64,000 bases of DNA from contig NW_027191408.1 in assembly GCF_041146345.1 (NCBI RefSeq), forward strand, positions 558,001 to 622,000, read 5' to 3'. This document shows positions 1,643-62,589 of the stretch, one piece after another. The position numbers and the translations under genes were made by a program. The stretch is from Neodothiora populina. Lineage: Eukaryota. Below the pieces are notes generated by a model. It did no database searches, had not been told where the DNA came from, and saw nothing but the letters and a program-made list of their open reading frames with translations. Every line of letters begins with the position of its first letter. Within the stretch, counting starts at the first letter, position 1.

Positions 1643-3301
1643 TTAATAGCTCTGGGGGAATTGGCTGGCTGGAGGACTGTTAAGCATATTCTGTCGCTCG
1701 TTCCTTCCCTTCTTGATGTGCCTCTTCAGTGCAGTGGAATCGAGCGGCTTCAACAATTCAAAGCTGCACAGCAGCTCGCCCGAGACCGACATGACGGCGC
1801 CCCAATTGTCGAACTCTCCGCAGTACTATAACGAGCTGTCAGCCATGGCGTCATACGTCTCGTCTGCGAGGCTACTTACATTTGGCGCTGAAAAGACTGT
1901 CACAAGAACTCTATCCGTGAAAAACTCATAGCCGTCCTCGACGACCATGTGCGCTCGGCAGACCAAATCGAAGTCATGCTTTGCCAAAAATTCCATAATG
2001 ACCTTCTTGCCAAAACAGTAACTGACACCTCGTTCATTGGCCTCCCAGTCAGCCTCCATATCTGCTGGATCACTCCACAGTAGGTCGTTGAGCAGGCCGT
2101 AGTCAGGAACATCGGTTGGTCGAGCAATGTTGCGGATATCGTCCATATGCGTCAAGCTTGGGGACAAACCACCGTGCACACAGAAGATCTTGCCGGCAAC
2201 GATGGCTGCAATGGGCAGAGTATTGAAGGTGTCGACGAAACTCTTCCATATCTTGACGTTCGTCCTTCTCTTACATTCATCATAAAATCCATAGACACGA
2301 GTGACGTTGGCACACTCATGATTTCCCCTCAAGAGGAAGAAGTTCTCCGGAAACCTCAGCTTGTAGCAGAGGAGTAGGAGGATCGTCTCGAGTGATTGCT
2401 TGCCACGGTCCACATAGTCACCCAGGAATAGATAGTTGCTGTTCGGGGGGAAGCCACACATCTCAAACATGCGGATGAGATCGGTGTACTGGCCATGAAC
2501 GTCACCGACGATCTTGACAGGTGGTGAAAGCTCGATCAAGGCGGGTTGTGACAGGAAAACCTCTCGCGCAGCCTGACAGATGGCGGTGATCTCGGCGTTC
2601 TTCAAACACACCGTCTTTGTGACCTTTCCTGCATATCCCGCATCGATAAGGCGCTTGATCATGTCATCGAGATCGCCAGGCTTGAGTGCACCGATCGCCA
2701 TGTCTCCACTCGGCGGTGAGTTTGACGAGAGCGCCAACGCAAGAGCGGCGGGACTTGACTTGTTGACGGTGGTGCTCTCCTTCTTCATCAGAATCGATTC
2801 TCGCGGCTCTTGTAGGGTGCCGACATGCAGGGCGCCGGTAGGCGGAGCATCGGACACAGCGTCGACTTCGCCCGTACGTTGGGCCTTTGCAATCTCGGAA
2901 TGGCCGTGACCCAAAGAAGATGACATGGTCGGCGACGGCGGTGGTTGTGGTGCAGCGGGCGAGACTGGCTCGCTTCCAACGGCGCTGTTCCTCCTAGAGC
3001 CACTGCCCTCGGTGTCTACCTTTGCAAGCGATGGCGTTGATCCGGTGCGTCTGTGATTTTTGTTGCTCGTGCCTGATTGGATGGACAGAGCATCCGTCGA
3101 GTCCATCGCGGCGCCATCTCTGGGCGATGACAGATCAGCAGAAGATGCTCTGGGCGAATCAGAAGATACCTTGCCCGGTATTTTGGACTTTATAGAGCTC
3201 CGTAGGGATCGAGAGGACTCTTTTGTGTCTGAGCGCGAGAAGGAGGGGTATTTCTGAAAGCCAGGGTCGCTGCTTTCGCCTTTTGAAGGCTGATTACCCA
3301 T
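1643..3301 (-). CDS. PPZ1: Ser/Thr protein phosphatase Z (PP1-related, PPZ type)
   Basis: Myristoylation-type start MGNQPSK, Ser-rich N-terminal arm, PPP motifs GDVHG, GDYVDRG and RGNHE. Exon 3301-1880 (…FSAPN), intron 1879-1826, exon 1825-1643 ([12 protein letters not shown]…QSY*). Confidence 0.93.
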
Positions 3302-4946
3302 TGTGTTCTAAGTTAAAGATGTGCGTTTGGGTCGTGTCGGTAAGGTAGCAATTCCGAAACTTCGCAGAGTCGATGTCGCGTGAGTTGGGCACTGACGTGA
3401 ATGATCGGAAGAGTCTATGGAAATTTGTACAGGGTAGGGGATAAATCAGATATGAGGCCTGGAGGGGATGCTGAGGTCAGGACATGTGCGTTGTCGCAGT
3501 CTCCAGCCACGTCGAGATAGTTGTGAGATGATGGAGGAGATGGTCTCGTAAGTATGCAAGTTTGGCAGTGACGAGTAAACAAGTCGGTTTTGGTATGGAG
3601 ATGTTTTGGATTGAAGGAAACGAGCGAGCAACACAGTGGTATATTCACCGATTCACCGAGTACACCGATCCGATACGACGAGATGTAAGATGATGGTCCG
3701 ATGGAGTTTGGCGGATATAGATGCAGTCAAGTTCGAGTCGCGGACCTTCACTTTTTGCCTTCCGACAGGAGAGACGGCTTGGTCAGGCTAAGGTGAGGTA
3801 GGGTAACGTAAGGCAGAGAGAAAGTAAGGTACAATGTAGCTGCCTGCTAGCTTGGGGAGGGTGCGGGAAGGAAGAGCTAGACCAGATTGAAAGTTCCAAG
3901 GATGGATTTATTGATTGTGTGAGTCAGAGGTAAAGTACGAGTGGATTGTGGTCTACCGCCGAGGAGCTTCGCAGCAGAGTTACTTTTTTGGTATGTGCTA
4001 TATGGGAGGAGGTGTGGTGTAATATTGTAAGGCAGAGGCAGTTGCGTATACCGCGAGTCACAGGTACCTAAGGTAAGACAACGAGAGAAACGCACACGAT
4101 GACGCCCGTCTGCGGCAAACGCCGGGGCTTGGGAATGTCTTGGTGCGGGTCACCGAGAGAGATGTGGATGAGAAAGACTGGCCGTGCCTTGGGTCTAGAA
4201 TCAACACTGTAATCCTTGGTATCAGACTACAATATCAATTGCTTACTGAACTGTCTACGCTACCTCCTGTTTGTGCTTATGGTACATAGCTCAAGCTTTT
4301 GTGCTTCAATGTACGGAAGATGACAGGACAGCTGAATTGGTCTGCATCTCATTAGCACCAAGGTCCTATAGCCATGGTTGAAGTTGCAATACACCGATAC
4401 ATTCTCTTGATCAATATCATGCTTCTTCGTGGTTACACTTGCTGCCATGCAATCGAAGACTGCATCTTACCTCACAACTTCTGCAAATGCTTATACACCA
4501 GATACAGTACACAGACATGTCGGTACCTGTACTCCGCAAGCATACCTTAGGTAGAGTACTTAGCTACCTGGACCGAGAGAGGCGCAGTGGCGTTCTCAGA
4601 GCAGCCCCAAAAGCCAATCATTGATAATGACAACATACCACCTGTTCTCCTTTAGGATGTCATGGTGATATCTGTGAAGCGACTGCAAACCATGTGCCAG
4701 CGAGCTTGACCTCGTTGGAGGAAAGGGGGCAACTCTTTCGTGGTACGAGCAATGTCCCTCCACCTGCATTAGCGTATCATGTTCCACCGGGCGGAGATAG
4801 ACTATCTGGGCAGCGCAGAAGCCAATCTGGGTGCCTACGTGTACGCGCGCACTCTCAGTAGTGGGGACTGCGGCAATAACATTACTTTTCAAGCTTGTGT
4901 GGCTAAGTCGTGACCAACGTCGCACGCTTCTGGCATACCAAAAGAG

Positions 4947-6799
4947 ATGATGTTGCCAGCGATGAAGTCTGTTCTTCTAGCATCTCTCGCCGTCTTAGGT
5001 CGCTCTTGTCAGATTGGCCAGTACCTACTGAGCGATGATAGCCCTACTAGATATACGCCGTTCAGCTCAGAATTTGACTTCTTCGTCGAAGAACTATTGA
5101 GAGAGTGGCATGTTTTTGGTCTAGCCATTGCTGTCGTTCACGCGAACGAAACTTGGTCAAAGGTAAGACTCGACTGTCGTGTATTCACGAAACGCCAATA
5201 TGTGACCCCACGCCCACATCCATGTCCGTGAAATCTACCTTGCTTGCCTTTGACATTCCAGAAAAGCCCGCATCTCACAGTAGTAACATTGGGAAAGGGA
5301 TATGGTTATGCGGTCCTTCCGGACGAGCCAGTGACTCCACACACTCTGTTTCAAGGCGCTAGCACGACTAAGTCCTTCACAGCCTCATTGGCGGCCTTGC
5401 TAGTCGACGACAATGATGCTTTTAAAACCGTTCAGTGGTCAAGCTCGATGCATGATCTGCTCGGGACCGAATTCGTCCTTGCCGATAAGGATCTAACCCA
5501 ACATGTGACCGTCCAAGATGCACTCTCCCACAGAACTGGTATTCCAAGACACGACGCAGCCTGGGTCAATAATGATATCGATGTCGAAGGAGAAGTGCAT
5601 GCTTTACGATACCTGCCAGCCTCTGCCCCTTTGCGAACCAAGTTCCAGTACTGTAATCTGATGTTCACAGCCGTGTCTCATCTGATTCAGATAGTCACAC
5701 ATAAGTGGCATGGCAACGTGTTACGTGAATGGCTATGGGATCCACTCGGGATGAACCAGTCATACTATTCCTACGCAGACGCGCACAAGTGCCGGCTTAC
5801 AGATGCTCGGTGCAAGATGGCCACCGGGTATGCCTGGAACAACGTGAGTCAGAAATATCATGCCATCCCGGACTCAGCATACCACGCCGGCAACGGGGCT
5901 GGCGGTATCATTTCAAATGTCCTTGATTATAGCAAGTGGCTCCGAGCTCTGATCTATGAAGACGGCCCGGTCCCTGCGGCGGGCCATTCGGCCATAAAGT
6001 CGCCAATGTCTGTTGCTGCTGCTGACCAGTATCCTTACTCGGGACCTCTGTGGTATGGCTTGGGTCTCGAAGGAGGTGTATACCGAAGCCATAAGGTACA
6101 CGGACACAGTGGAGCGATAGGAGGGTACTGGTCACGTTTTGCTGTTGTGCCAGACAAACAATGGGGATTCATCGCGTTTCAGAACGCATCTGGCCGTGTG
6201 ACGGACGTTGTTCAGTGGCGGCTCATTGACGAGATGTTGAAGGTCCCTGTGGGCGAGCATGCGGCTATGAACGAGCAGTAAGTGCTTATGGTGTTGTGTC
6301 AGTACAGCAAACAGTTACTGCGAGGCTAACAACCAATGACAGCCTTCTCAAGAAAGAAGCCGAGGAGCTGGAGTCGAGACGTACGCTCCCGAGCAAGCTC
6401 TACTCTACCACTCCGTCGCAGCCAATACCTCCGAGTCTATCGCTGACTTACTACGAGGGTAGCTACCGCCATGCAGGCTATGGTCATATCAACCTCACAC
6501 TGACAGCACCCGTATCCGATGTAGTTCACAGCTCTCCGATCAAAGGCGCAACTGACGCGGCACTATACGCCATGGGTAGGTGTGAAGAGTCACTGTACAC
6601 ACTGCGTCACGCATCGGGGGAGCATTGGCTGCTGGAAATGAGATATCACGTGCACAACACGCAAGTGGTAGACGGCTATACCAAGGCAAGATTCGAGATA
6701 GGTTCCAGCGGGGCAGTGGGACGACTGGGAGTGATGTGGGACGCGTCTGAGCAGGAGGAAGATGAAGGATGGGTCTGGTTCCATAAGAGTAGACAGTAG
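4947..6799 (+). CDS. Secreted beta-lactamase/transpeptidase-fold serine hydrolase with C-terminal DUF3471-like domain
   Basis: Signal-peptide-like start, SxxK (ASTTKSF), YxN (YCN) and HSG motifs, C-terminal YEGSYRHAGYG. Exons 4947-5162, 5298-6277, 6343-6799; phases join correctly. The first acceptor (AAG at 5295-5297) is the least certain. Confidence 0.85.
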
Positions 6800-7385: not shown

Positions 7386-8966
7386 ATGGTCAAAGACACG
7401 GCCTACTACGATGTGCTCGGTCTGCCGCCGACCGCCTCGGAGATTGAGATCAAGAAGGCATACCGCAAGCTGGCCATCAAACTCCATCCCGACAAGAACC
7501 CCGGCGACGAGACCGCACACGCAAAGTTCCAGGAGATTGGTGAGGCCTATCAGGTCTTGTCGGATCCTGCGCTGCGCAAGAGATACGATGACTTTGGCAA
7601 GGATGGAGCCATGCCCAGCTCTGGCTTCGAGGACCCGAGCGAGATGTTCACAGAGATCTTTGGTGGTCACGCGTTTGCCGAGTGGTAAGCTTTATTTCTT
7701 TTTGTCGGTATAGGACACTAATCGCTGACAACGTCAAGGATCGGTGAGATTTCCATGGTGAGAGATCTAGAAAAGTCCATGGAGATCACCATGAGACACG
7801 ACGAGGAGAATGCAAAGATAGAACACGAGATGGAGGAAGCTGCCATGGAGGCTGGAGCCGCTGGTGTCGACGTCGGCATGGACAACACAGCCATCCCTGC
7901 AGCTTCTGCCGCCGGTGACAGGGCGGCCGCGGCCTCGGTATCCGAAGATATGGAGAACATGCACCTGCACGAGAAGGGCGCCGCTGCCGCTGCAGCATCA
8001 GAGACTGACTCGGGGACCTCGACTCCGTACTCGTCGGAGAAACCCACCGGAGTGCCTACCAGGCTCGCCATCACCGACCGTGCCGAAGAGGAGGCTCGCA
8101 TGGAAGCTGCGGGTGTGTCCGAGGAAGAGAAGCAACTGCGCGAGAAGTCGAAGAAGAAGGGTGGGCTGACCAAGGAGCAACGCGAAGAGCTTGCCGCCTT
8201 CGAAGCTGAGAGACAGAAGGTGCGCCAGGAGCGCGTGGATGACCTCGCCAAGAAACTCGTCAACCGCTTGTCTCTGTGGACCGAGACCGACAAGGGCAAG
8301 GACGTGACCCAGTCTTTCCGCAAGAAAATGGAGGAGGAGGTGGAGAATCTGAAGATGGAGTCCTTTGGTCTCGAAATCCTACACGCCATCGGACAAACCT
8401 ACACCTCCAAAGCCGCCACCTTCATCAAGTCGCAAAAGCCCATCATCGGTGGAGTCACCGGCTTCTTCTCACGTCTTAAGGACAAGGGCACTCTTGTCAA
8501 GGAGACTTGGGGCACCGTCAGCACAGCCATCTCTGCTCAGATGGAGATCGAGGACATGGCCAAGGCCGAGGAGCGCGGCGGTGAGGACTGGACCGACGAG
8601 CGCAAGATGGAGTTTGAGCGTCGCGTCACTGGAAAGATCCTCGCTGCCGCTTGGAGAGGATCCAAATTCGAGATCCAGAGTGTGCTTCGCGACGTCTGCG
8701 ACAAAGTCCTCTACGATAAGACCGTCAAGCTGGACAAGAGAGTGGAGCGCGCACATGCTTTGGTCGTCATCGGAGACGTCTTCAACAAAGCCGCCAGGAC
8801 AAGCGAGGAGGAGGGCGACCATCTGGCTTTTGAGCAGCTCATGGCCGAGGGCATGGCCAAGAAGGACAAGAAGAAGAAGAAAGAGGATAAGAAGTCCGAG
8901 ACCGGGTCTGCTCACCACCACTCCCACCACTCAGATTTCGCTCGTCCTTCTTCCGCCCAAGCCTGA
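7386..8966 (+). CDS. Hsp40 J-domain protein with DnaJ-X domain (Djp1/Caj1-like)
   Basis: [12 protein letters not shown]…KLHPDKN J-domain and [15 protein letters not shown]naJ-X region. Exons 7386-7684 and 7739-8966, intron GTAAGC..CAAG with GCTGAC branch point. Confidence 0.92.
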
Positions 8967-9222
8967 GTCTTCCTTCTTCCTATCTGCCTCTCTGTCCCCT
9001 GCCTCCGCTTGTCTATTCACACAACTCTTTGTCTCGGCCTTTAGCGATCTGGGCGGCGTGGGCTTTTTTTTGGTTTCTGATTTACTCGACGAAATCTCCG
9101 CCGCTATTTTCTCTGCACTCTCCATCAATCGTGTTTCGTTTTTGCTCTTCTGCAGGAGCAGAGAGAAGGATGTTGACTTATGCTCGGGTCAAGTTTCTTT
9201 TTATATACACTATCAAGTCACC

Positions 9223-9594
9223 ATGCCTACCATGCCATGCCATACCATACCATACCTACTCACATCTCTCCCACTGTTCTCTTCCTTTGACACCCATTTG
9301 CCAGATTCGAAAAGCACTTCCCACGAAAACTACAAACCTCCCCCAACTCAAGCTCCACCCACTAACACTAACACCCATACAAGTTTCCACAGCGACCCAG
9401 CCTACGCCGGCCTCTCCTTCATAACACTCATCCTGCCCGACCACTCGACCCGCCGAAACTGGTTGTCGCTGTCCTGGGCCGTCTATCTCTGGTTCTGCAT
9501 CCTGCTGGCCGGAGCCATGCCTTTGGGTCTCGACAATGCGCCTCAAAAGGCTTGGGGAAGTGCGGGTTCGTTGGGGTCGTTGTTTAGTTGTTGA
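9223..9594 (+). other. Possible small membrane-protein ORF or orphan coding exon
   Basis: ATG at 9223 (GTCACCATG) opens 123 codons. The part after a CTAAC…CAG acceptor-like site (9390-9392) has C/G-ending codons and hydrophobic segments (…GLSFITLILP…WAVYLWFCILLAGAM). No family recognised. Confidence 0.3.
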
Positions 9595-10421
9595 TCAAGT
9601 GCGTTTTGGCGGGGGTTGTGTACTAAACTAGTGTAGAAGAGAGCGAGAGAGGATTCAGATTCGAGGTGTCTTGCAATAGAGTACGAGGATTGCGGAATCA
9701 TGATAGCATTCTTTATGAGCTAGAGCGAGAGAGGACCGTCAAGCAGTAAAATGAAATGCATGTATGGTGAACTCGAGGGCGACCCTGTCTAGTCGCGCCA
9801 AGTACCAAGACTTCACTCTACCATTGTCCAGAACGACTGTTCCTCTATATGGATACTTCGAATCCACTATTGACACGATCTTTGGTTCTCGTGGTAATTG
9901 AACCGTCACATCAACACGGTCTTGGATGTTGACTTGAGTAAATCCTCGACGACCACACTTACGGCAGATCTCCACGGCCAAAGACATCGACAACACTCTA
10001 CACATTACACACAAAAAGCACCAAATGCCACTACCACACACAGGTCAAAAACGATCATGAATCAGCAACAGTCCAACCAGCAGCATCTACAGCAACCAAT
10101 ACCTTGCATGATCAATTCACCCCTGACCAGTCCAACACCCAGCCACTAAGAGGAAATCAAGACTGCACAGCAGTAGCGTACAGCAAGTAGCCGTAAGAAC
10201 ACTGCGCGGAGGAGCCGTCTGGTCTAGACTTACCGTACCTCCTTTACTATCACACTTCCCGCCTGACACTTCACAACAGTGCTGGCGCGTGCCCAGGCCA
10301 GGTTCAGTACAGCAGCAGCTCGTGGCCTTGCAATCAGCTATTTTCTCAGCTATCAGCTCTCGGCTGGTAGAGCACGAGAGGGTGTATTTGTTTCAGCTAA
10401 GTACAGGGCCAGCAAGGAGTG

Positions 10422-10683
10422 TTATCGGAGAAACTAGTGGTTCGGCCTGATATGGCAGTACTGGATGTATGGTACTGGGTAGATGGTTCAGCATGTTAGA
10501 CTACGACGATCATGTCGGCTACGAGTCCGGCGAGGATCATTGGGGAATCAGTGGTTCGGTTGGCTGTAGCTGTATCATTGGAGAAATAGTCCTGATGTTG
10601 GCTATAGGTAGTATATACTGGGTAAAATCAGTTCAGCTGGCTGGCTGTAGCAGTATTATCGGAGAAACATGTCACTGTAGCTG
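10422..10683. repeat. Degenerate ~38-42 bp tandem repeat (about 5 units)
   Basis: Recurring ATYRTYGGAGAAA…GTTCRG…TGGCTGTAGC-like blocks starting near 10422, 10536, 10574, 10613 and 10655. Confidence 0.55.
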
Positions 10684-13600
10684 AAATCGCGATATTCAGC
10701 CTACCTACCTTATGGAGTGTACAGCAAGTAGCTAGCGGTGACATGTCCGAAGTAGGTGTTAGTAAATGGTAGCAACACGAATTAGGACAAGGTTCCTTTG
10801 TTTACTTTTTGAGACTTTCCAACATTGATATAGTGCAGTGCAGAGGTACCTTTGTATTGTAAACAAGTCTCTTGCCGTCTGGCATAATCTCAAGCAACGG
10901 CCTTGCGCATCAGGCTATTGTCGTTACTACTACAGGGAACGAGATACGGTACTGTACGTATACTATTCTCTTGACTACCCAAATGTACAGGGAATATGTC
11001 TACAAGTACTGTACAATACAAGGCATAGGTCGTACGAGCTAGGGTGCATGATATACAAAGTCGTTGTTGATCTGTGCCTCAACTGATGCTCTGGATCGTT
11101 GTACTAAGCAACAAATCTCAGGTACCTTACTGCATCATCCTTGTCGTTCTGTGCCTTTTTCCTTCAAATCGCACTTCCGTGTAAGCCACCACTGTACTTT
11201 ATTTTACCATGCAGCTTTCTGATGCCCACCCCTGGCCTAGGTTGTTGGTAGCCTCAGCTACTGTACTGTACTGTACTTAGCCAGGTCCAGCTGGTGCGGC
11301 TGAGAACGCTGTTTCCCCTGCAATCTATGTGTGATGGTCAAGATAAGGCAGGTGGCCCATAAAGATACTTGTCGCTTGCCTTTACTATCTTACCTACGGT
11401 ACCTACAGTACAAGTCTTGCACTTCAGTCATAATTTGGTGCCTGTAACTTTCGGCATCTGAGCCTTGATTTTATATGGCATTGCGTTGGCTTTACCTTCC
11501 ATGTCTTCTTACACTTTGTTGCGTCGCTACAACCTTCCACGAAGAAGAAAAGTGGCTGTGACGAGCAAACTTTGTAGAAAAGGTAATTCTTGTTCCTTGA
11601 TATTTTGTGGATGCTCGGTCGCGGCGATCCCGGGACCACGGGCGTGTTTTCATTTGACCTTGGCAAGGAAGTTTAAATGTCTATACTCATCCTGTTATGT
11701 GTTGCGATGCGTTGCGTTGCGTGCGTAGACGACGACCGGCATTTCCGGCAATGCAAGCGCATTCCTTGCAGAATACAGATGTTCATGATCGAGGGCTATA
11801 TGCTGAAGCTTGTAAAATTGGTCTAGAAGACGAGAAAGTTTTTTCCGGTCGATATTTTGTGTTCTTCCCAATCTCGAAGGCGCGCGTCTGGAAGCATGCG
11901 AAATGATGATGTTTCTATTTGCGAAAGCAACTTGGCAAAAAAGTCTAAAACCAAGGTTTCGAGAATAGAGATAATTATGGTCGTCCGACTTGAGAGCGTG
12001 GTTCGGGAAGCCAAGGCACCGCACCCGTAAACAGCAAGTAAAGGCTAGGCAAGCTACCGTAATGGTAAGAGATGAAACTTGCGTACGTTCACAGTACGCC
12101 TTTCCCAATAGACTGTGCTCTCTTTAGCTGTGACGCCATAGTCTCAAGTGGATTACTCTGCGAACGACATGGTTCGATGGGCCTGCGTGCTAAATACAAG
12201 CACAAGAAAGGATCTATTTCGGTATCGAGCATCGATCCTCACGCATCTCTGAAAATCACGATCGTGATAATTCGGACATATCCGAGAATGGCTAGGTGTA
12301 CGCTGACTGGGGGTTGATTGAGGACTCGAGTCAATCGCAAGGTTAATACAGCAGAATAGATTGTCACGGTATCTCAGGTACGTATCAAGGTCCACGTGGG
12401 ATTTGTGTGTGGCGCCCGCTTGAAACTCTAGTCAGATATCGAATGCCAACTGTTAGATACTTGTATACGTTGCTATCAATGGCTTGACCTCCCGCAAAAC
12501 CACTCGATCTGAGCAAGTTAGCGCAACAACCTACTCTTGTTGCGTGATCATGTCGGATGTAGAGAGCCGGCTGCTGTAGCCAAGATAATGCCTGGCTAGG
12601 TAGCTGCGAGGATTCAAATCAGAGGAGCAATGAGGGGAAGGACGAAGGGAGGAGATTGCCCCGTGTACGATGCCGACTTCACAACAAGGTAATCAAGGTA
12701 CGTCAGGCACCACTTGAGGCAGTTCCTCCGTGCTAGCGCAGCCACACTTTGCTCTGCAGTAACTGTGAGACGTCCACGTTGCAACTATCACATCATCATT
12801 CGGTTACCTACAACATGCGTGTTCATGTCGTCTTATTGTCCACCGATTCAAGGACGAATCAGGTAAAGCGAAGGGTTCGCTCCCTTCCCACGCGGACAAT
12901 CGTACGTTGTCATTGCATGCTGCACGCTGTGAAATAGAGTGTTCAGGTGCCTCACCGGTGCAGATCAAACTCACGATATGAAGATGGCCATGCACAGCTA
13001 CTCCACAGGCACTGCCGCTTACATACCCCTTGCCCTGTCTCCAGATCCAAGCTGCTGACTGTCATACCCTTGATCGACTTTCGTGCCAAGATGGCATCAT
13101 GTGCACCACAAGGACATACGCATCAGGCACCGATGTCCATTGCATACTGAACTATAAACGCTAGCTGTCACTTCGCATAAAGTGCCGGCATCGTGTGATG
13201 TATGCCAGGGATCATGTGCTCGTTATAGCGTGCTGCACATCCTGAAGGGACAAGTGGACGATGGTCATTGGGCTCACAATCGCCGCGATATGCAATAGGT
13301 CGCTGAATTACCTTGGCACCCTGGCGGGACTGGAAGAGGAAAAGCAAGACGCTGAGTCTAAAAAACCGAACCACCGTACATAGCGTGCATGCAATACCTT
13401 ATCTGAACCCGTACCCTAGCTTGTCGACTCGATGCGTCATGCATGATCAGGCAGACGCACCACCGTGTTGGCTGTGTTAGCTGTTGTCTGCAGCGATTCG
13501 TGCCCCGCCCCTGAGAGAGATGCATTAACGAACCGTGAACGCCTCAGGAGAGATGCCAACATGTCTCACATATGCAGCACCGTCGAGAGACTCATCTAAA

Positions 13601-14531
13601 TCGCTCAGGTACAGAACGAAACAATAGCAGCATTATATGTGAGGTCTTTTCTTGAGGCGCCCTTGGCATATAGATGTATTGCGCCTGATTAAGATCGTGG
13701 CACCTCGCGAAGGACGGAGTGCCTAAATATAAGCTCAAGGATTGAACTAAAATCCCAGGTCAGGTACCCGGCGCTTGGCGACCGCGCGAGAGATCACAAT
13801 CATGACAATTTGCGCAGAAATACAAATCACCGCTCACAGGGCACGATTGCAGGTATGCAGGAACAATATAGTGGTAAAAATGAGTGAAGCATTACTATTC
13901 AATAGCGCCATGAATCGCAGTACCAAAGTACTGTACAGATAAATCAAGAAAAATGACCAGGCGCGAGTATATCAGCTGCCTTTGGGGTATATTTGCCGCA
14001 ACCATCCGAACCCAAAAATGCTAGCAGCGAAAGCCCGAAAAGACAATGCAATGAACTCCGTAGACCAAAGGTCCCATGACCAATGCTGAAAAACCCCTCC
14101 TTCATGCCAAAGCACCCCGTATATTAAAAAAATTCGTAAAGAAGTTGGCCGATAATAAGCCGGCCAGCAGCAATCGTCAGGCTGACAGGAGCAGCGGTGA
14201 CACTTTGATGCAATGCTCGCAAGTGATTTGATTGCCATCGGCTGGAGACATAAAAGTGTGAAAGCCATGCGTAAGATGTGCTTACGGTGGGGCGAGTCCC
14301 GTCGATAGCCGCTGATTGTCGTTTCCCGTGACGCCTGTTGTCTTTGTTGCGACATCCCATGTACACCAGATAGATGAACTCCATAGAGACAGGCCGAAGA
14401 TAAGAAACGAGTCATGGCTCTCATTGGCCGATCCCCTCTGCTCCACAAAGCAACGGTGTCAAGTCATGCAGAATGACTTGGAGAGAGGAGGATCTTCGTA
14501 AAGTTTGAGTCATGTTATCCACCTGGAGATA

Positions 14532-14609
14532 TCATGATCGTGGAAGAGGAGGTAGAGGCCTGTTTGGGGGAGGGCCGGGGCAAGGAGGATAGTCAACTGC
14601 AGCAGGCAT
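14532..14609 (-). CDS. 25-aa proline-rich micropeptide MPAAVDYPPCPGPPPNRPLPPLPRS (candidate SH3 ligand)
   Basis: ATG 14609-14607 in context TCAACAAAATGCC, TGA at 14534-14532. It is the first AUG downstream of a TATATA (14856-14851) and a ~240-nt C/A-rich leader. 11 of 25 residues are Pro and it contains RPLPPLP. Confidence 0.6.
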   Translation of the reverse strand: MPAAVDYPPCPGPPPNRPLPPLPRS

Positions 14610-14850
14610 TTTGTTGATTGATGTCGTTGGTCGAGGACTTGAGTTGGTCGATAGAATGTTCGTTGTATGTGTTCAGATAAGGCGTCGAGTAATTAGATGA
14701 TACCAAGCAGTGGTTATAGGCAAGCTTTTGAACAAAGTCTGTTGAGCTATGTTGGGTTGGAGTGTTGGTAGTAGAGTAGATTGTGTTCTGTTCGTATGCT
14801 TGGGTCTTTGAGTTTGCAGAAGAGTTTGGGAATGGGAAACAGGGAACGAA

Positions 14851-14858
14851 TATATATG
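14851..14858 (-). promoter_or_regulatory. TATA-like element upstream of the micropeptide ORF
   Basis: The minus strand reads GGGCATATATATTCG followed by a pyrimidine-rich tract (TTCCCTGTTTCCCATTCCC), typical of a fungal core promoter. Confidence 0.5.
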
Positions 14859-17820
14859 CCCTTTTTTCTAATGACAGCCTGCGCTTGCGCCTCGTGTGGG
14901 ATTCATCAGGTAAAATGCAGTGACGCCAGAAGGCATAAGCTAGCGGGAAGTCAGAAACGGCGGTGTCCGAGCTGCGTGGCTCCAGGAAAAGGGGAGTGGC
15001 AGCGCTTCGTGTGGGCAGGGCTGACACCGCTAATCTTGGAAACCATAAGGTGCTGAAGCTTGCACAGTGCTCATCCTTGACCTGCTTTTTCCCGCCTGTC
15101 GTGACGTCTCTGTTATGATCATCGAGCACAGAAGATACAGAGCACCACACGGTTGCCTTGTTTCCACCACCGTCCTCCAAAGCTGTGCCGTGCCTGCATT
15201 TGTCACCCTGTAGTGTTCACTGCATGATACACCTTGGTAGGTGATCAGGCCCTTCGGCTACGGGTCTGGTAGGCCCGAGGCAGCCGGACTTGCATGGAAA
15301 CGCGCATATCGAACCATCTTGCAAGCCTTCCAAAGCTTGCCGGATCCCAGATGCACGGAAAACTAACCATGCACTGACACCTCTAGTGCCCGCGTCGATG
15401 CACAGAGCTTACAGCACTGATCCTCCGTTTCAGCTGTGAGCCGTAGTGGCAAATTACAAGTTCACTTCGTTACACAATGTTCATCAAACAAAGCACATTT
15501 GCTGACTCACAGACAATGCATAGCTCTAGCATGGTGCCGTGCTTTACAAATTTTCCGACATATCAAAGATTGATGACCGAGGCAGAAGCGCGGTAGAAGC
15601 ACGGTAGAAGGCGCCACGAAAATCTTCAATCTATCTCGAGTTCCATGGAACAAGTTTGAAAAGGACCTTCGAGAAATTCACACCACACAGTGTCGCACGA
15701 TATTCTGTCCCATTGGCGAGATTGGCTTGTGATATCATGCACATACACAACCTGCTCCGTGGAAGCCATGGAGAGTTTCAATCCTTGGGTGCTGCCAACG
15801 TGACGGGATCTGCCCTTCGCATAAGCGTTCCCGTCCCACGTGGACACGTTCATCCCGCGTTCTCTCCCTCTCTTGGCTCGGAGTTTGGGCATAAGGATTG
15901 TGAACCGGCTTTCCTCGCAAGCGACTGCACGCGTTCAGCATGTCCCAAGGCTATTCCTGAACTGTGTCCTTGCGCACTTACTAAAGTAGCTAGGCATTGC
16001 AGCGTACCACAGGTAGGGTAAGGCACTGCACCTGAACAGAGACCTGATCATCATGACGATGTCACAAGTACTACAGTGCCGTGCTTTCCCGCTTGTCCCA
16101 AACTCTTGGGACAAATGGAAGTGCTTCTATACTGGGAAGTCCTTCCATGATCACTGAGCCGTGATCACTAGGAGCACAGCGGAGACAAGGCCGATATTCG
16201 AGGGTTGTAAGGTCTGATGCTCGCGTTTCACCGCCCACCTCACCCCGAGTCTTTACCACTGCGATAAGCTTTTGTGTTGCTCATGCCTTTCTTTGACGTA
16301 CCCAGAGTACAGACAAACCGGATCACAGCTCAGTCGACACATGTACTTGTGACCCAACGAGTGGGTCGATATCTGTCCAGACGCCATCACTCTCCGCGTA
16401 ATACCTGACGTGCTTCGACTATATGCGCCCCATCCGCTCACTTCCTCCTGCATGTAGGATATATCCGGAAATCTCGAGTTCAGCTAGTCATGGATACGGT
16501 CTTGCAATAACGCGAGCCACTGTTTCTGGGGACAACTGTGTCCGTTCCGATATACAAGTAGAGCCTCCGTGCGGGAGAAATCGCGAACATGCGGTGATCA
16601 AGTTTTGACAACATGAATGCTGTGCGCTTCTTGCTGGTGGGACGGTGCCCTCTACGGTTCGAACGTACAACATCACACCTCACGATCGACCCGAAGCAAT
16701 TAAGAATCTTGTCAATGACACCGACTGATTCTATCGTGGTCACACCTCATTTGTGGACCCCAGTATGTCAATGTAACTCGCTCGATGAAAATTCTTCACT
16801 TCATGTTCTCGATTTAGGGTCCATATAAATTGGAGATCATGATATGGTACGGTCTGCACATGTTGTTGCCTTGAAGAGGAAGTACAATGAAGATCTCGCT
16901 ACTTTAGAGCAATATTCTAGACAACACCGCATGTTGTCTCTGCAAACATGGCGAAATAGCGATCTAGCTGCATGCATCCATATGGCCAAGTGTCAAGAAT
17001 TAAGTCAATGGGCTAGGACCACCCTGGATACCTGTATCACAAAGTGATGTTTCACATTTTGTTGGCTAGTTGGAATCTTAGCAGCTCTAATCTATACAAA
17101 TAGCGAAAACTTCTCGAGAGCTCCATCGCAATAGCAAGCTCGCGACAGATTTACTCTCGGGTTCAGGTGACAGGATTCCTACGCATTTGACAATTGAGAT
17201 TTGTGCGGACTACAGTTGCTGTTATGCTACGACAAAAGAGCACTGCTTTAGATCGTGCAAAATAATCCCTTGTAAAATACGTGGGTATTACACTCGATGC
17301 AAATAAAAGTCTAGCGCATCTTCCCGTCTGTTCTGACTTGCGCAGGACGGACTGGATAGACGATAGCCGACAACGTCCGAGAAATCCAACTGATTGTATT
17401 TTGGAAAAGTGTAGTATTACTATAGGTGAGCGGTGAATGGACTTGTTAGACCACAACAAGGGTCCTTGAGTCTCACCGCGTGCAATGATCTACGTGCACC
17501 AACATTTACGGCTGTTAATCCAGAAGGCGGTGGAAGCCGAGGATTGCCAGATAGATCGTCTTTACACCAGCCACTCGAGGATCATTCGGCCGAAGAAGAA
17601 CCACTGTTATATTGCTTGTTGCTCTTGGAGATTGATGAATAACTCCAATAAGCGGTGGCTCGTTCATGGCATAAGGTGGTCAATGGCTATTGTAAATCGA
17701 TCTATCTTACCGTTGTCCAAATGTAGATTGCTTAAGCGGGATGACCGCTACTCGCTTTCCTAACTTGATATAGGAGCCGCGCAGGTATATATAGAGCAAA
17801 CAACAGCAAACTAACATAAA

Positions 17821-17913
17821 TCCGATGTGGTCTAGTGGCTAGGATTTGCCGCTCTCATCTTTCGAATGAAAGAAAGGTCCGGCAAGGCCGGGGTTCAATT
17901 CCCCGCATCGGAA
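17821..17913 (+). tRNA. tRNA-Glu(CTC) with 21-nt intron
   Basis: Acceptor stem TCCGATG/CATCGGA plus discriminator A, A-box TGGTCTAGTGG, anticodon stem TGCCG/CGGCA, anticodon CTC at 17854-17856, intron 17858-17878 after A37, T-arm GGGGTTCAATTCCCC, T-run downstream. Confidence 0.96.
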
Positions 17914-18832
17914 TATTTCTTTTGGCACTGTGGTACAGTAATGTATCATTGTCGTGGAGCCTGCATTTTTGATCTGCTGTTGTGTTACAGTGGATGGCTG
18001 TCAGGCGCTTGTCGTGTAATGTAAGGCGGAGCGCTTTACTACCAACTTCAGCCAGCTGTAGGGCGTTCATTGCGACGTGCTGCAAATCTGTAGTATCTAC
18101 GTGAGATGCAGGCTGTGCAATTTATAAGAAGCATTGTCAAGTCAGTCAGAACTACGGCTGCATCACGTCCTCATGTAAGCTGTCCACTTTACTCAGGCGT
18201 TCAGGTCATGAATAGTATTAGGAGCAGTGTGCTAGTGCTAGTCGCGCCAGTGGTATTATTCGAAGGAATCACGTAGGCTGAGCAGCCACCGTCCGAGTGA
18301 TGCATTTTCCACGCCGTTGCTTGTAACGGCTGGGGTCATCGCCAGCTCTCAACTCCACAGCAGGGCCTCGAATTAGAGTAGCTGCAGCTACTGCTGAGGC
18401 TATGCCTAAGCTGCATCAGGCGCCTGATTTCACTGTACAACTTTACATGACTTTGCTATCTCGGTGGGCTTTTCCTTATTGCGGTAGTAGGACATGTCTC
18501 GCTGCCTGGAAGAGTATCATAGCACTCACGTCAGCTGCGGCTGATTTCCAGGACTACAAGGTAAGCATGTGCCTTTATTCCCAATGTTGAAGGCCTTATC
18601 TACCTACACAGTTGCTCTAAGCCTTACTTTACCTGAGCGACTTTCACATGATCGAAGGATAGAGATGTCATAAATATGGCGGGAGATCACACTCTACATC
18701 CATATTTTGGTGTATCAACTAGCCACTTTCGAGCGAACCCAAGTGCGACGGCGATACTGCATTTGCTTTCTTCCACATTGATTCTGTAATTGACAACAAC
18801 TCCAGTATCTTGCAAGCGTTTAGAGTGCTAGG

Positions 18833-20152
18833 ATGCAGCCCTCATCTGAACCCCGAAGGCTGTTGGTTTTCTGCGACGGCACTTGGTGCGGCCCAGAGAC
18901 CGGCACGAGGACGAATATCCAGATACTGGCTGAGATGGTTGATATCGATGTCACTGGTGGCAAGCTCGAGGTCGACTCCAAGGAAAGAAACCTCAAGGCT
19001 AGATACTTCTATGGGATTGGTCTTGGCTCCACATTCATATCATACCTCTTCAATGGGTCTACAGCAAACGACATCTCGACCATGTGCGTTGAGACGTACA
19101 GATGGATCGCCGAGAATTTTGAAGAGGGAACTGAAGTCTGGATGTTCGGTCTGAGCCGTGGAGCATACACCGTTAGATGCGTGTCAGGAATGATTAACAA
19201 TTGCGGGGTTGTCAGACGTCCATTTGGAAGTAGCATGTGCGACGAAGTCTACCGGATTTATTCAAGTCCTTACGACGAGGACAAGCCGGATTCAACGCAA
19301 AGTCAGATATTCCGTGCCCAGGCGAGCTGGCCCGATACAATTCCGATCAAGTTCCTCGGACTCTTCGACACGGTAGGGAGCATTGGCATCCCAACCATCG
19401 ATGCCGGAAATGGCCCTTCGTATCCGACGTTATGGGATCAGGTCGTCCCCAGCGTCGTGCAAACAGTATATCATGCATGCTCATTGCACGACCGTCTGTC
19501 GGTATTCCAGCCATGTCTCACCAAGCTCTCGGAAAAAGAGGAAAAGACCAGACAGCGCCCGCAGATCACAGAGCAGTGGTTTCCTGGTTGCCATTACGAC
19601 CTCGGCAGGCAGAAGTTCAAGTTCCTCCGTCAACGAGTCCATGGTCTTGAAGCCTGGTTGTCTGTAATCCCAAATGCATTGAGCAAGACGCTTGAACCCA
19701 ATGAGGTTCTGTCAGATCTCGTCCTCAGCTGGATGCTTCAATCGATAAAGAAGACCTTCCCACTGCAGCATGCCATCGAGGACATCGATACGGAGATCTC
19801 AGCACTTGATATATCCATCGCAAAGGTGGATAAAGGCGTAGGATCTGGCGATGTCTATTCTAAGCCCTTGGCGTACGCTCCATTTGGTCTTTTGTTGAGT
19901 GCTTTTAATACCCCTGCTGTCTTGTCAGATACCGCTAGGGTGCTCCTTGCTCTAAGAGATCGCCGTATCCCGGATGACAAGGCCATTGTTTATCCTTACC
20001 ACAAGCCCTACGGGGAGCAGCGAACCTCGATCGAAAAGCTTGCTAAGCTTACACCAGAACGATACCCGTCTAAGACCTTCTCGGCATTCAAAGAATGGCA
20101 GAAATATTTTGGTGTTGCTTCCAAGCAAGATCGCACTAATGGGTTCGCTTGA
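18833..20152 (+). CDS. DUF2235 / Tle1-like alpha/beta-hydrolase (putative phospholipase)
   Basis: Intronless, 439 aa, with RRLLVFCDGTW, GLSRG (GxSxG), LFDTVGS and WFPGCHYDLG motifs. Confidence 0.9.
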   Translation: MQPSSEPRRLLVFCDGTWCGPETGTRTNIQILAEMVDIDVTGGKLEVDSKERNLKARYFYGIGLGSTFISYLFNGSTANDISTMCVETYRWIAENFEEGTEVWMFGLSRGAYTVRCVSGMINNCGVVRRPFGSSMCDEVYRIYSSPYDEDKPDSTQSQIFRAQASWPDTIPIKFLGLFDTVGSIGIPTIDAGNGPSYPTLWDQVVPSVVQTVYHACSLHDRLSVFQPCLTKLSEKEEKTRQRPQITEQWFPGCHYDLGRQKFKFLRQRVHGLEAWLSVIPNALSKTLEPNEVLSDLVLSWMLQSIKKTFPLQHAIEDIDTEISALDISIAKVDKGVGSGDVYSKPLAYAPFGLLLSAFNTPAVLSDTARVLLALRDRRIPDDKAIVYPYHKPYGEQRTSIEKLAKLTPERYPSKTFSAFKEWQKYFGVASKQDRTNGFA

Positions 20153-24572: not shown

Positions 24573-26358
24573 TCAACACCTCATGAACATCTTGTAGACT
24601 GCATTGTCCGTCTCCTCGTGGTAGCCGTAGCCAAGGTCGACGAGGAATTTGTCCAGTTCTGCCTCTTGGCCTTTAGGGCACTGGATACCCGCAAGCACCC
24701 TGCCGACATCGCCTCCATAGTTTCTGTAGTGGAATAGGGAAATGTTGAAGCCGGGCTGCAGAGTCGTGAGGAACTTGACCAAGGCGCCACCTCGCTCGGG
24801 AAACTCGAACGCGAAGATACGCTCGTCAGCGGCCGCGCTACGCCCGCCGACCAGGTAACGAATGTGTGACTTCGCAATCTCGTCATTGCTGCAATCGGCG
24901 GCTGTCATGCCCTCCTTGGCTAAGCGCGCGATCAGGTCCTTCAGATCTGCTTGACGAGACATGGCAGACAGTTGCACGCCGAGCAGGATGTTGGCCTCGG
25001 CGGCGGAGGCGTAGCGATAGCAGAACTCGGTCACGACCATGGGCGAGACGATAGAGATGAGCTTGGCGAAGGCACCGGGCATCTCGGGAATAGTGACAGA
25101 GAGAAGGGCTTCCTTCTTCTCTCCCAAGGCGGCACGCTCGGCGACGAAACGGAGTCGGTCGAAATTCATGTTTGCGCCAGAGGCAATGGCGACGAGCTGT
25201 CTCTTGGGGTCGGGAGATGGGTTCTTTGCGACATACTTCTTCAAACCCGCAAGGGACAAAGCACCGGCAGGCTCAAGAATGGAACGGGTATCTTCGAAAA
25301 CGTCCTTGATGGCAGCGCAGATCTCGTCGGTGGTCACCTGAATAACATCGTCGACGACCTCGGTAGCCAGTCTGAATGTCTCTTGACCGACGGTCTTGAC
25401 AGCAGCACCGTCGGCAAACAAACCGACCTCGTTGAGAAGCACACGCTTACCGGCCTTGAGCGACTGCACCATAGCGTTTGCATCGTAGGTCTCAACGCCG
25501 ATGATCTTGACGTGAGGTGCGATGCGCTTGATATAGACACCGATACCACTGATCAGACCACCTCCTCCAACACAGCAGAATATAGCCTCAAGCTTGGTGA
25601 GATCAGCTTGGCGCACAATCTCCATACCGATAGTGCCCTGGCCAGCAATGACATAAGGGTCATCAAATGGTGGGATGTTGATGAGGCCATGCGCATCAGC
25701 TAGACGGGCGCATTCGGCCTTTGCCTCGTCAAAGTCAGCACCGTGGAGAACAACAGTGCCGCCCAAACGTGAGACATTGCTGTGCTTGATGGCCGGGGTT
25801 CCCACCGGCATGGTGATGGTGGCTGGGATCTTGAGTTTGCGCGCTGAGTAGGCGACACCCTGGGCGTGGTTTCCGGCGGAGCAGGCGACGACGCCCTTCC
25901 ATTTCTCTTGTGGCGTCAAGTGAGCCATCTTGTTGTAAGCTCCTCGTAGCTTGAAGCTGAAAACAGGCAGGAGGTCCTCCCTCTTGAGGAGGACATCGCA
26001 TTCAAGACGGTTAGATATGTTGACTGCCTGAGTGAGCGGCGTTTCTTTAATAACATCGTAGACTCGTGATGTGAGAATCAAGCGCAAGTACTGTGATACA
26101 TGTCAACATCTGACGCATTGAAGGGTTTATAGGCCGATGGATGGGACGAAGAGGGATGATGGAAGGAAGGACAGCATTTACATCAGGGTAGCCATTGGGC
26201 AACAAGAAGGCTTCAGGAACACCAGCAGTCACAGTCTTGTCTTTTGGTGTTTGCGACGGAGGAGAAGGATTGGTAGCATATTCCGTCAAGCTCAGTGAGT
26301 TGACAGCAGGGGTCTGCGGCCGAGAAAGGCCATTAGGCGTTGCGGTCGCGTCAGTCAT
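24573..26358 (-). CDS. ILV1: Biosynthetic threonine dehydratase (threonine ammonia-lyase)
   Basis: PLP lysine motif [24 protein letters not shown] and two C-terminal regulatory ACT-like repeats. Exon 26358-26182, intron 26181-26091, exon 26090-24573. A possible upstream micro-exon is discussed in the findings. Confidence 0.96.
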
Positions 26359-31200: not shown

Positions 31201-31757
31201 AGGAACGCCCAAGCGTATCGGTAGATGACCGGACGATCGCACGCAGCGCAGCGCCTTCCCCATCTCCAGCCAGAGAGGATAGTGACAACACCACGCCTGC
31301 GGATTCGCTTGACGAGATGCAAGATCTAGATCCCACTCTGCCGCAGAATCGACCTAACTCTGAGATACACATGCCTACATTGAACGGTCATCAAGAAGAC
31401 AATGCTGCGCGAGAGACTGAAGAGGAACCGATGCGTCTTTCCCCATCATCGCCACCTACGCCCTTACCACCAGGTCTATCACGAGCGTCATCCGCATCGT
31501 CCGCAAACAGTCTCGACGTTCACTATAGACTCGGAAACAGCAACGACAGAAACAATAACGAGGAAGACTATGCGAGTCCTCCATCTTCAGCACGTCTTGA
31601 CTATCTGCACCGACTAGACGAAGAGGAAAGGAGAATATTGGTCAGAGGAGGTCCGGGACGATTGACGTTCGAAGAGGTCGAGGAGATTTGTCGGAGGGAT
31701 AATAACAGGGGTATACTTGAGCTCGTAGAGAGTTGGCTAGAATGGGCTGGCTTTTGA
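28284..31757 (+). CDS. Membrane-anchored ZZ zinc-finger + EF-hand protein
   Basis: N-terminal hydrophobic anchor, poly-Q, ZZ finger CDSC…HCINCPDYDLCSNC, EF loops DTDNNQLIDFEE and DADDDGLLCRAD. Exons 28284-28599, 28659-29136, 29195-31757. Confidence 0.88.
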
Positions 31758-42300: not shown

Positions 42301-42662
42301 AAGACGAATTGTCTGAGCTGTTGGTTGTGAGCGACGCCGAAGTCATGCCCCTCGACGACGACTACAGGAAGAAGCTCATCGAGCAAGAGGAGAACGAGGC
42401 AATCAAGCAGATCATTCGCGAGCGCGAGAATCCAGCTTGGAAGTTCGAAGTCGAGTTCGAGTGTGGCGATGCTGAAACACCAGCCACAGGAAATGCAGTA
42501 GTCTTGCCACCGTTCGGTGAGAAGTGCGTCAGATGCTGGCAGTATATTGCAGAGGAGCCGGATACGCTTTGCGGACGCTGCGCCGACGTCGTCGGCGAGG
42601 ACTCGATTCAGGAGATGCAAGCACGATCGGAGGCGCTGAACGACTTGGCCAAGTTCCAGTGA
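39386..42662 (+). CDS. ISM1: Isoleucyl-tRNA synthetase, mitochondrial type
   Basis: Presequence-like MLRHTRVLRAAA, LHDGPPYANG, HVGH, GWDCHGLPIE, WCISRQRSWG, KMSKS and C-terminal CxRC…CxRC. Exons 39386-39995 and 40054-42662. Confidence 0.93.
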
Positions 42663-43619
42663 GTTGTTAGTGGTCGCGGCCTCGAGAGATTGTTGTATAT
42701 TATCAAGACCTGCATGAAGTGTAAGATTTGTACGATAGGTGAGGATTCAGCTTGGGTTTGGCACTGTTACAACAAAAGAAGAGATATATTTTTGTGAATA
42801 CTACCAGCTGTAAATTGGAATCAACGCAGGAACTGGTCAACCTCTGAATCTCTCGACACCATCTCTAGTCATATCCACGTGATGTACTTTGCAGAGGAGA
42901 CGTCTTCAACTGTGCCCTGTACATGGCATTGACATTTTCGTATCACGTTATGCATCTTTATCAAGAGTGGAGCCGTACAGTAACGATGCGTATAATGACC
43001 GTCAGTGCAGCCAGATAACAATCCAGAAACATGTCCTACAGTAAAATAGCCAAGTAGTAATTAATGCAAACTCTAAAAAGCGAGGACTAACATCGAGCGC
43101 AACAACTTTATTTTTATAACGTACAATCCAGTACGTCACCTACTATAACACAACTTAATTTTTTTGTACATTGACCAACATCACGTTGTGTCTCGAGATT
43201 GTTCAATTACATTAGAAAAGTATTGCTCCCAAGGAGAACTATCGATAAACAAGAAAACTGTCAGTTGCTATATAGTGCTTGTTGATTGCTTTGTACGGTC
43301 AACCGATTGCTTCTGAAGGATAGAGTTGACTTTCAGGACTTTTCGTACACTTTTTGATTCTATTGTCTTCTGAACGAAATTTAGGCTTGTTCTTTTTCAA
43401 TTTTCTGCTCTCTGATTCATTTCGGTGTACGAAGGACAAACGAATGAAACGACGATCTGTGACATCCTCCCTGCAAAAAGTCGAGGGCGAACCAGTGGGG
43501 CCAGCAACAGTATCTTCTGCTGAACATCAGACCCTCGCTCTAAGTGCGCATATACACATGATCTGAGATTCGAAGACATAGAACGAAAAGAACAAACAAG
43601 AAAAAGGGAAAAGGAAAAC

Positions 43620-62277: not shown

Positions 62278-62589
62278 CGAAACACAAGATGTGGCTGAGG
62301 GCGGTCGTGCGCGCGGATAGATCTCTACCTGTGATCGGTGCTTAGCGTCTCCGCTGACGTCCGGTGATGACGAACGAAAAAACAAGGGGACTTTCCCTAT
62401 ATGCGACCAGAAACTGTTCTTACTACGAGGAATTGTAAAGTTTTCATACCCGCGAAACGGATCGAAATGGATATAGCCACATGGTGAAATATGCATTGCG
62501 CAAACTATCTTTAATATCTCCTCTTGTTCGGTCATCCGAGCGCAGCTGGTAAAGCTTGTTCTTCGGCGAAGTCCCATTATAAGGCAAGG

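Follow-up and report, generated by a model that had tools for sequence, protein, structure and literature searches.

A candidate stand-alone micropeptide gene of filamentous ascomycetes whose product may be an extended class I SH3 ligand

We analysed a 64,000-nucleotide stretch of the Neodothiora populina genome (contig NW_027191408.1, positions 558,001 to 622,000; hereafter the window), in which a very short open reading frame (ORF), here called the micro-ORF, lies on the minus strand at 14532..14609. It starts with an ATG at 14609-14607, stops with a TGA at 14534-14532 and comprises 25 codons plus the stop. A minus-strand ORF of 25 amino acids had been given in a preliminary description of this DNA, and the ATG, the TGA and the translation MPAAVDYPPCPGPPPNRPLPPLPRS* were read in the window sequence exactly as stated there. 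Orthologous ORFs are present at 66/66 metagenome loci, described below. The 17-codon core, YPPCPGPPP-N-RPLP-P-L-P, occupies 14541..14591 on the minus strand; its columns are invariant in the family alignment, with third codon positions free. The last seven core residues, RPLPPLP, match the class I SH3 motif +xΦPxΦP.

The start-codon context in the window is tcaacaaaATGc (14610..14613, minus strand), with C at -4 and A at -3. Among the 42 distinct family sequences, C at -4 is found in 39/42 and A at -3 in 38/42, and the remaining upstream DNA is unalignable. The micro-ORF is preceded by an AUG-free, G-poor and C/A-rich stretch (14610..14903, minus strand) that is presumably the 5' leader together with the core promoter. 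The nearest upstream ATG lies at 14906-14904, 294 nt away, and the 200 nt before the start have a composition of A 0.38, C 0.32, G 0.10 and T 0.21. Low G (~0.10) and high C are found uniformly over the 200 nt upstream in the whole family, and past the stop the composition is normal again. The AUG-free stretch has a median length of 230 nt (range 15-325), the short cases being in-frame upstream ATGs in some loci of one lineage of the family (lineage A). At the lineage-A loci L027, L050, L061 and L064, as well as L011, L028 and L054, a second in-frame ATG is found 6-7 codons upstream (N-termini MPPTPST-MPSYY... and MLAQST-MPSY...), and the true start may lie earlier there. Across 43 loci, ATG is depleted in -200..-1 (23 observed vs 62.3 expected from shuffles) and is not depleted downstream (296 observed vs 198.8 expected); family-wide, a median of 48 nt separates the stop from the first ATG past it.

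A TATATA box lies at 14851..14856 on the minus strand, 242-247 nt upstream of the ATG, and a TATA-like element occupies the same aligned place in L024, L060 and L012, the loci of the window's own lineage. Farther upstream is a conserved promoter block of 57 nt (cggacaccgccgtttctgactt ... ttctggcgtcactgcattt; 14913..14969, minus strand), which is 78-84% identical to L012, L060 and L024 and is surrounded by unalignable DNA. Collinear blocks continue to ~1.3 kb upstream in this lineage, and the rest does not align. Four of them (15017-15043, 15415-15458, 15577-15616 and 15809-15851) are 80-93% identical to L012 and L060; they reach 1.3 kb upstream of the micro-ORF amid unalignable DNA and may be distal regulatory elements. 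The TATATA at 14856-14851, the AUG-free C/A-rich leader and the good start context, all of which had been pointed out before, are thus confirmed and recur in relatives. Judged from the sequence, this is the anatomy of a putative gene with its own regulated promoter, in which the AUG of the micro-ORF would come first.

Within the window itself, the evidence for the micro-ORF does not exceed chance level: 93 ATG-initiated ORFs of at least 20 amino acids overlap the 7.5 kb at 11000..18500. The GC skew is +0.40 on the plus strand at 14500-14999, the micro-ORF strand being the C-rich one, and since this strand is C/T-rich, Pro and Leu codons are expected by composition. The micro-ORF is raised above chance because it is conserved elsewhere, not because of any feature of the window.

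We found this conservation with a degenerate DNA pattern for Y-P-P-C-P-G-P-P-P-x-R-P, which matched once in the window and never in 100 shuffles, and which returned 66 loci from a metagenome collection. As a control, the same pattern gave 2 matches in 596 Gb (596 billion bases) of prokaryote genomes, and neither of the two continued into LPxΦP or had a Met-Pro start or a stop close by. At all 66/66 metagenome loci, the motif sits inside an ORF of 24-33 codons. Features that the pattern does not impose are likewise present at 66/66 loci: an in-frame ATG-CCN (Met-Pro) 5-14 codons before the Tyr, the continuation L-P-x-[LIVT]-P after Arg-Pro, and a stop 1-5 codons past LPx[LIVT]P, for which TAA, TAG and TGA are all used. 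Together with the window, the 66 loci reduce to 42 different DNA sequences and to 30 different peptides, 24-33 residues long, with N-termini of six types.

A profile built from the 30 peptides was searched against 1.84 billion representative proteins and gave 10 proteins at E<=0.001 (best 1.5e-07), every one of which carries the same motif. In 6/10 of them, the motif lies at the extreme C-terminus, the protein ending 1-5 residues past the last Pro, after a long low-complexity N-terminal extension; we read these extensions as over-extended ORF calls through a stop-poor leader. The named members are 'hypothetical proteins' of Fusarium oxysporum (48 and 78-79 aa) and a 73-aa 'hypothetical protein' from a metagenome-assembled genome of Lichina confinis. 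Two of the F. oxysporum proteins (P0005 and P0009) are two models of one locus; they have only the first 28 residues in common and differ from there on, the products being 48 aa and 79 aa long, and probably at least one predicted intron or extension in these models is wrong. The threonine dehydratase of the window is 100% identical to a protein recorded for N. populina, with proteins of the Dothideales coming next. The family therefore ranges over at least the Dothideomycetes (the window, N. populina), the Sordariomycetes and the Lichinomycetes. The profile search of the 1.84 billion representative proteins returned no protein from the window, and the micro-ORF gene is apparently missing from the protein set of this genome. 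A word-index protein search with the 46-aa stop-to-stop translation also gave no match. This blank is a false negative, since the profile search found the 48-aa F. oxysporum protein, which is within the length range searched. That 48-aa NCBI protein shares nine 5-residue words with the word-index query. Proline-rich words seem to be unindexed, and word-index blanks mean little for low-complexity peptides.

The variation among these ORFs is that of a protein under selection. Codon positions 1 and 2 of the core are fixed and position 3 has an entropy of 0.9-2.0 bits; both AGR and CGN are used for Arg in the core, and both CTN and TTG for Leu. In 656 pairs of sequences with different N-terminal types, identity is 0.90 at core positions 1+2 and 0.32 at position 3, and it is 0.31/0.26 in the flanking 30 nt further up and downstream. 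The synonymous sites are therefore as saturated as the unalignable flanks. At the L, P and P codons, which are invariant and not imposed by the pattern, the synonymous difference (pS) is 0.71 vs a non-synonymous difference (pN) of 0.014. The N-terminal 12 codons of lineage A, also not imposed, give a pS of 0.57 vs a pN of 0.13 in frame; the two other frames lack this asymmetry (0.24/0.22 and 0.08/0.29). The core of 17 residues is identical between fungi whose isoleucyl-tRNA synthetase (IleRS) is only ~55% identical; given an IleRS identity of only 55-57%, the peptide core is far better kept than a housekeeping enzyme. The third-position variation, the switches between codon families and the retained start and stop make this a protein-level signature and not a nucleic-acid one, and recent copies of one sequence are excluded because the flanks are unalignable. 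Start and stop are kept and selection in frame is purifying, as in a genuine small coding ORF. It had been proposed that a conserved peptide with synonymous changes and a kept ATG and stop would support the gene; this pattern is clear across the 66 loci, and the loss of frame or of peptide conservation that was looked for in relatives did not occur. On these comparisons, the micro-ORF is almost certainly a selected coding ORF.

Taking it as such, it is probably a stand-alone gene, to judge from the loci compared. Among ORFs of at least 35 aa within -1500..+2000 of the stop, the different N-terminal types have nothing in common but alternative frames that cover the micro-ORF. In lineage A, the next gene on the same strand is Sam37/Tom37-like and starts 924-1950 nt downstream, with 13-35 ATGs between. 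In lineage B (L002, L003 and L013), a class I tRNA synthetase gene (IleRS) follows ~900 nt downstream; in L002 it starts at +901, with 15 ATGs between. In the window, hexamer scoring detects no coding signal for ~4.9 kb downstream of the micro-ORF. The micro-ORF thus does not lie in the leader of a conserved main ORF, as a conserved-peptide upstream ORF (uORF) would, but is followed by a Sam37-like gene, an IleRS gene or none. There is also no conserved GT splice donor at the ORF end across the family; many copies, including that of the window, have no GT there, as in the endings TCA TGA (window), AAA TAG, AAA TGA and CAT TAA. The single GT within the window micro-ORF is GTTGAC at codon 5, a poor splice donor by fungal consensus, and all three reading frames are closed within ~25 nt downstream of the stop. 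With no donor kept and the frames closing after the window stop, we ruled out splicing out of the micro-ORF via canonical introns. Because the downstream neighbours differ, 13-35 ATGs intervene and no donor is conserved, the micro-ORF is not the uORF of any conserved gene, and it is not a first exon either. The earlier statement that no recognisable main ORF follows, and that this does not look like a uORF, is borne out across lineages, and the possibility raised with it, a first exon spliced into a longer protein, is not what we found.

Some observations concern the DNA downstream of these ORFs. The IleRS of the window lies 25 kb from the micro-ORF on the opposite strand and is 55-57% identical to the lineage-B IleRS. 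This placement fits an old linkage scrambled by rearrangement, and shuffled gene linkage is known from filamentous ascomycetes. Lineage A keeps a DNA block, ATACCC(C)ATGTAC (ATACCCTTGTAC or ATATCCTTGTAC in some), at +449..+585 past the stop while the surroundings diverge; it is seen in L006, L011, L014, L017, L022, L027, L031, L038, L041, L046, L059 and close copies. The block may signal the 3' end of the micro-gene or belong to the promoter of the Sam37-like gene. We rejected reading it as a protein C-terminus ('..IYPCT..'), because the frame is lost between close relatives, for example L014 vs L037. The window has ATATACCCC at about +542 (13990), without an adjacent TGTAC.

The fixed and free positions of RPLPxΦP fit class I SH3 binding; a peptide that may act as a decoy or regulator of an SH3 protein, with the Cys as a possible modification site, had been suggested in the preliminary description. 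The basic residue three positions before the first ΦP is R in 30/30 peptides, where it is imposed by the pattern, and in 10/10 profile matches. In the two ΦP dipeptides, the L-P and the final P are invariant in the 30 peptides without being imposed by the pattern. The x position varies among P, A, K and Q, and Φ is L, I or V (T in L005, L007 and L040). If the ORF is coding and the gene stands alone, we lean modestly, at slightly better than even odds, towards an SH3 ligand as its product. A profile search of the PDB with the peptide family gave 0 matches at E<=10.

Our best explanation as a whole, to which we assign a probability of roughly 0.45, is that the micro-ORF is a stand-alone micropeptide gene of the Pezizomycotina with an extended class I SH3 ligand as its product. 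We infer its transcription, its translation and the SH3 binding of the micropeptide. In this scheme, the gene would be transcribed from its own promoter, consisting of the conserved block and then the TATA element, into a monocistronic mRNA whose leader of ~200 nt is G-poor and AUG-free and whose ORF, in a strong start context, has 24-33 codons. The product would have four parts: Met-Pro, a variable linker of 3-12 residues, the [Y/F/L]PPCPGPPP-x-RPLP-x-Φ-P core and, last, a short tail that is mostly basic. It would be unable to fold because it is too small and roughly half proline, and would thus be an exposed, free polyproline-II ligand. The C-terminal half of the core would serve as a canonical class I SH3 motif, and the invariant N-terminal half, [Y/F/L]PPCPGPPP, as an 'extended motif' conferring affinity and specificity for a single SH3 domain. 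By occupying this domain, the peptide may compete with, or bridge, the normal partners of the domain. Roles for Met-Pro (as an N-degron) and for the single Cys (as a lipid or redox site) are guesses. Put more generally, and tentatively, at somewhat less than even odds, filamentous ascomycetes may possess an ancient gene that encodes nothing but one extended SH3-docking motif, a linear motif acting in trans.

Several points weigh against this explanation. The codon usage of the window micro-ORF is non-coding-like, with a hexamer score of -6.5 over 25 codons, where genuine 30-codon coding windows average +21. Across the 66 loci, 11 residues (Y, P, P, C, P, G, P, P, P, R, P) are invariant because the search pattern demands them; since many loci are near-identical copies from related samples, they stand for far fewer than 66 independent lineages; and the fungal origin of the metagenome contigs is deduced only from their neighbouring genes. 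In the profile matches, Y is replaced by F or L, C by S (in the Lichina protein) and N by D, and Met-Pro is missing in 3/10. Moreover, 4/10 of these matches run 22-137 residues beyond the motif, and either the 'micro' size is not universal or the gene models of these four are wrong. The PPCPGPPP run also resembles a ribosome-stalling sequence.

Alternatively, the peptide may be made and functional with a partner other than an SH3 domain, such as a WW, GYF or WH1/EVH1 domain or profilin, or its key feature may be the Cys, as a lipid anchor, redox switch or disulfide dimer, or the Pro exposed after Met removal, as a Pro/N-degron. The Pro/N-degron is read by the GID ligase, and Met-Pro is invariant in 30/30 peptides, with all four Pro codons used; the most strictly kept half of the core, [Y/F/L]PPCPGPPP, is not itself a canonical SH3 motif, and the window's copy contains PPLP, which is the WW class II motif. 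However, PPLP is not conserved, its x position being P, A, K or Q, the peptides contain no PPxY or PPGΦ motif, the Cys is replaced by Ser in the Lichina protein and Met-Pro is lacking in 3/10 profile matches, while the pattern of fixed and free positions in RPLPxΦP is exactly that of class I SH3 ligands. We regard this alternative as the less likely one, with something like one chance in four. It is also conceivable that the act of translation is what matters. Polyproline and PPG/PGP runs are eIF5A-dependent stall sites, and Met-Pro plus PPCPGPPP could form a cis-acting stalling sensor, dependent on eIF5A (spermidine/hypusine), for its own RNA or for something downstream. This would account for the proline run and for a micro-ORF opened by the first AUG of a long AUG-free leader; conservation at the peptide level is typical of arrest peptides too, and a housekeeping gene comes next on the same strand in two lineages. 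Yet no downstream ORF is kept across lineages within -1500..+2000, the neighbours differ with 13-35 ATGs between the stop and the start of the next gene, and the window is devoid of coding signal for ~4.9 kb downstream. The distance from core to stop also varies (1-5 codons, more in Fusarium), unlike that of termination-arrest peptides, and polyproline stalling does not need an invariant R, L and Φ. Such a sensor, a main rival of the SH3 explanation, seems unlikely.

The remaining alternatives question whether the ORF is a complete gene, or coding at all. It could belong to a longer protein, as its initial coding exon or as a fragment, with the other exons evolving too rapidly to be aligned, as the F. 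oxysporum models of 48 aa and 78-79 aa, one Logan protein extending 137 residues past the motif and the overlap of some stops with GT (AAG|GTAA, AAG|GTGAGC) might suggest. We consider this very unlikely, given that many copies, including that of the window, have no GT near the ORF end, that the only internal GT of the window's copy is the GTTGAC at codon 5, that all three frames are shut within ~25 nt of its stop and that the Fusarium models agree for the first 28 residues only, with no downstream exon kept. A chance ORF in a pyrimidine-rich promoter tract, with the conservation belonging to a DNA or RNA element, would explain the C-rich strand, the poor coding score and the commonness of ORFs of this size. 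It would leave unexplained the concentration of variation at third codon positions, the Arg AGR/CGN and Leu CTN/TTG switches and the retention of start and stop while the flanks are saturated, and its probability is close to negligible.

For the SH3-ligand explanation, the closest known counterpart is yeast Pbs2. In the available sections of PMC4904012, Saccharomyces cerevisiae Pbs2, from the HOG (high-osmolarity glycerol) pathway, binds the Sho1 SH3 domain through VNKPLPPLPVAG, and the window's ...PNRPLPPLPRS matches this motif at N-[K/R]-P-L-P-P-L-P, both being class I. The NRPLPPLP of the window is one conservative change from the NKPLPPLP of yeast Pbs2. According to parts of another study (PMC12505296), Pbs2 residues up to ~8 positions N-terminal of the motif also tune Sho1 binding (an 'extended motif' at 85-99), and extended motifs also set the binding strength for Abp1, Nbp2 and Bem1. 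This parallels the invariant 10 residues before the R in the micropeptide. On the other hand, the Pbs2 motif is a short stretch in a large mitogen-activated protein (MAP) kinase kinase, whereas the micropeptide is essentially the whole gene product, and the N-terminal flank is a predicted helix in Pbs2 and a rigid proline run in the micropeptide. The same sections of PMC4904012 state that yeast Pbs2 still functions with, or is bound by, the Sho1 of Aspergillus nidulans and that of the Dothideomycete Hortaea werneckii; yeast Sho1, for its part, was not seen to activate A. nidulans Pbs2 or to bind H. werneckii Pbs2. These cross-species results, together with the likeness of NRPLPPLP to Pbs2, make Sho1 an attractive candidate partner. 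A specific role of the micropeptide as the endogenous ligand that the Sho1 SH3 domain of Pezizomycotina is missing, or as its competitor, is, by analogy with yeast, a long shot. In that version, the peptide could be kept at the membrane by its invariant Cys, and its half-life could be governed by the N-terminal Pro.

Other small genes resemble the micropeptide gene in part. Lipopeptide pheromone precursor genes (Neurospora mfa-1 / ppg2 type) are stand-alone Pezizomycotina genes with their own promoter and an ORF of ~24 codons, as proposed for the micropeptide gene. The lipopeptide pheromone precursors of filamentous ascomycetes end in a CaaX box for prenylation. An a-factor-type precursor was ruled out here, as 0/30 peptides have a terminal CaaX and their one Cys lies inside the chain, 13-18 residues before the C-terminus. 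Conserved-peptide uORFs and arrest peptides (fungal arg-2/CPA1 AAP and polyamine-sensing uORFs) are likewise short ORFs conserved at the peptide level; they open with the first AUG of a leader, as the micro-ORF probably does, and its proline run could slow ribosomes. The micro-ORF differs from them in having no conserved main ORF, different neighbours, many intervening ATGs and a variable core-to-stop spacing. Precursors of fungal ribosomally synthesized and post-translationally modified peptides (MSDIN, dikaritin, borosin) have a variable core, a conserved leader and clustered processing enzymes. We excluded such a precursor, since the core is the invariant part here and no neighbour is conserved across lineages. 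The nearest clusters in the ESM Atlas are small plant proteins with CYSTM / XYPPX repeats, at scores of 0.79-0.83, below the 0.9 line of the tool and so only a lead; their N-terminal Tyr/Pro-rich stretch resembles the N-terminus of lineage A. CYSTM (PF12734) itself was rejected, because the peptides lack the C-terminal Cys-rich transmembrane module, have a single Cys and end 1-5 residues past PxxP. Competitive-inhibitor microproteins, namely the plant and animal 'microProteins' and yeast Nrs1 (available sections of PMC11413187), also have a small product proposed to occupy the interaction surface of a larger protein. These are folded domains or young lineage-restricted peptides, whereas the micropeptide is a bare linear motif conserved across fungal classes.

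A text search with the family peptide strings, in which supplements were not opened, matched no publication. In the available sections of a review of hidden fungal genes and of a survey of conserved fungal small ORFs (PMC7394265), a term search found neither 'proline' nor 'SH3'. The family is thus essentially undescribed, being represented by a few F. oxysporum records and one Lichina record, all 'hypothetical protein' and with models that disagree. A 2024 review (PMC11413187, available sections) describes functional microproteins in filamentous fungi as barely explored, and the family offers a concrete and cheap test case. It illustrates that annotation length cut-offs hide deeply conserved genes. 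If the product is an SH3 ligand, a signalling network would be tunable by a separately encoded docking motif, and the peptide would be a natural tool against one fungal SH3 domain.

In the window, the micro-ORF lies in the middle of a ~9 kb ORF-poor gap (9600-18800), which is unusually large for a compact fungal genome. On one side of the gap a DnaJ-X gene ends near 9594, and on the other a DUF2235 gene begins at 18824. None of the ORFs within 9600-18800 has a coding-like hexamer score (best 0.37 per codon vs ~0.70 in training genes), five local ORFs around the micro-ORF gave no credible Pfam family (only DUF3683 at E 0.17), and Rfam and tRNA scans around it gave no match. The sequence after the stop (13972..14531, minus strand), presumably 3' untranslated, contains a non-conserved 150-aa ORF. 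This ORF (14424..13972) was considered as a main ORF and rejected, as it has no Pfam family, no coding hexamer score and no conservation in L024. One sequencing run, probably of DNA, yielded three contigs of 135-349 nt at 100% identity and without joints, covering 13298-13432, 14684-14875 and 16241-16589; these are uninformative on expression.

The other genes of the window were assigned mostly by Pfam. Before the gap lie a PP1/PPZ-type phosphatase (1826-3307), a beta-lactamase-like protein (5232-6281) and the DnaJ-X protein (7722-9594). Beyond it follow the DUF2235/Tle1-like hydrolase (18824-20152), a threonine dehydratase (24573-26102), a ZZ/EF-hand protein (29145-31757), the IleRS-type class I tRNA synthetase (39386-42662, plus strand), a DUF1275 protein (43562-44557), an AMP-binding enzyme (44872-46038), proteasome RPN2 (47784-51308), a PAS histidine kinase with a receiver (53783-57608) and a GT28 glycosyltransferase (62515-63597). 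This gene content is ordinary fungal housekeeping and signalling.

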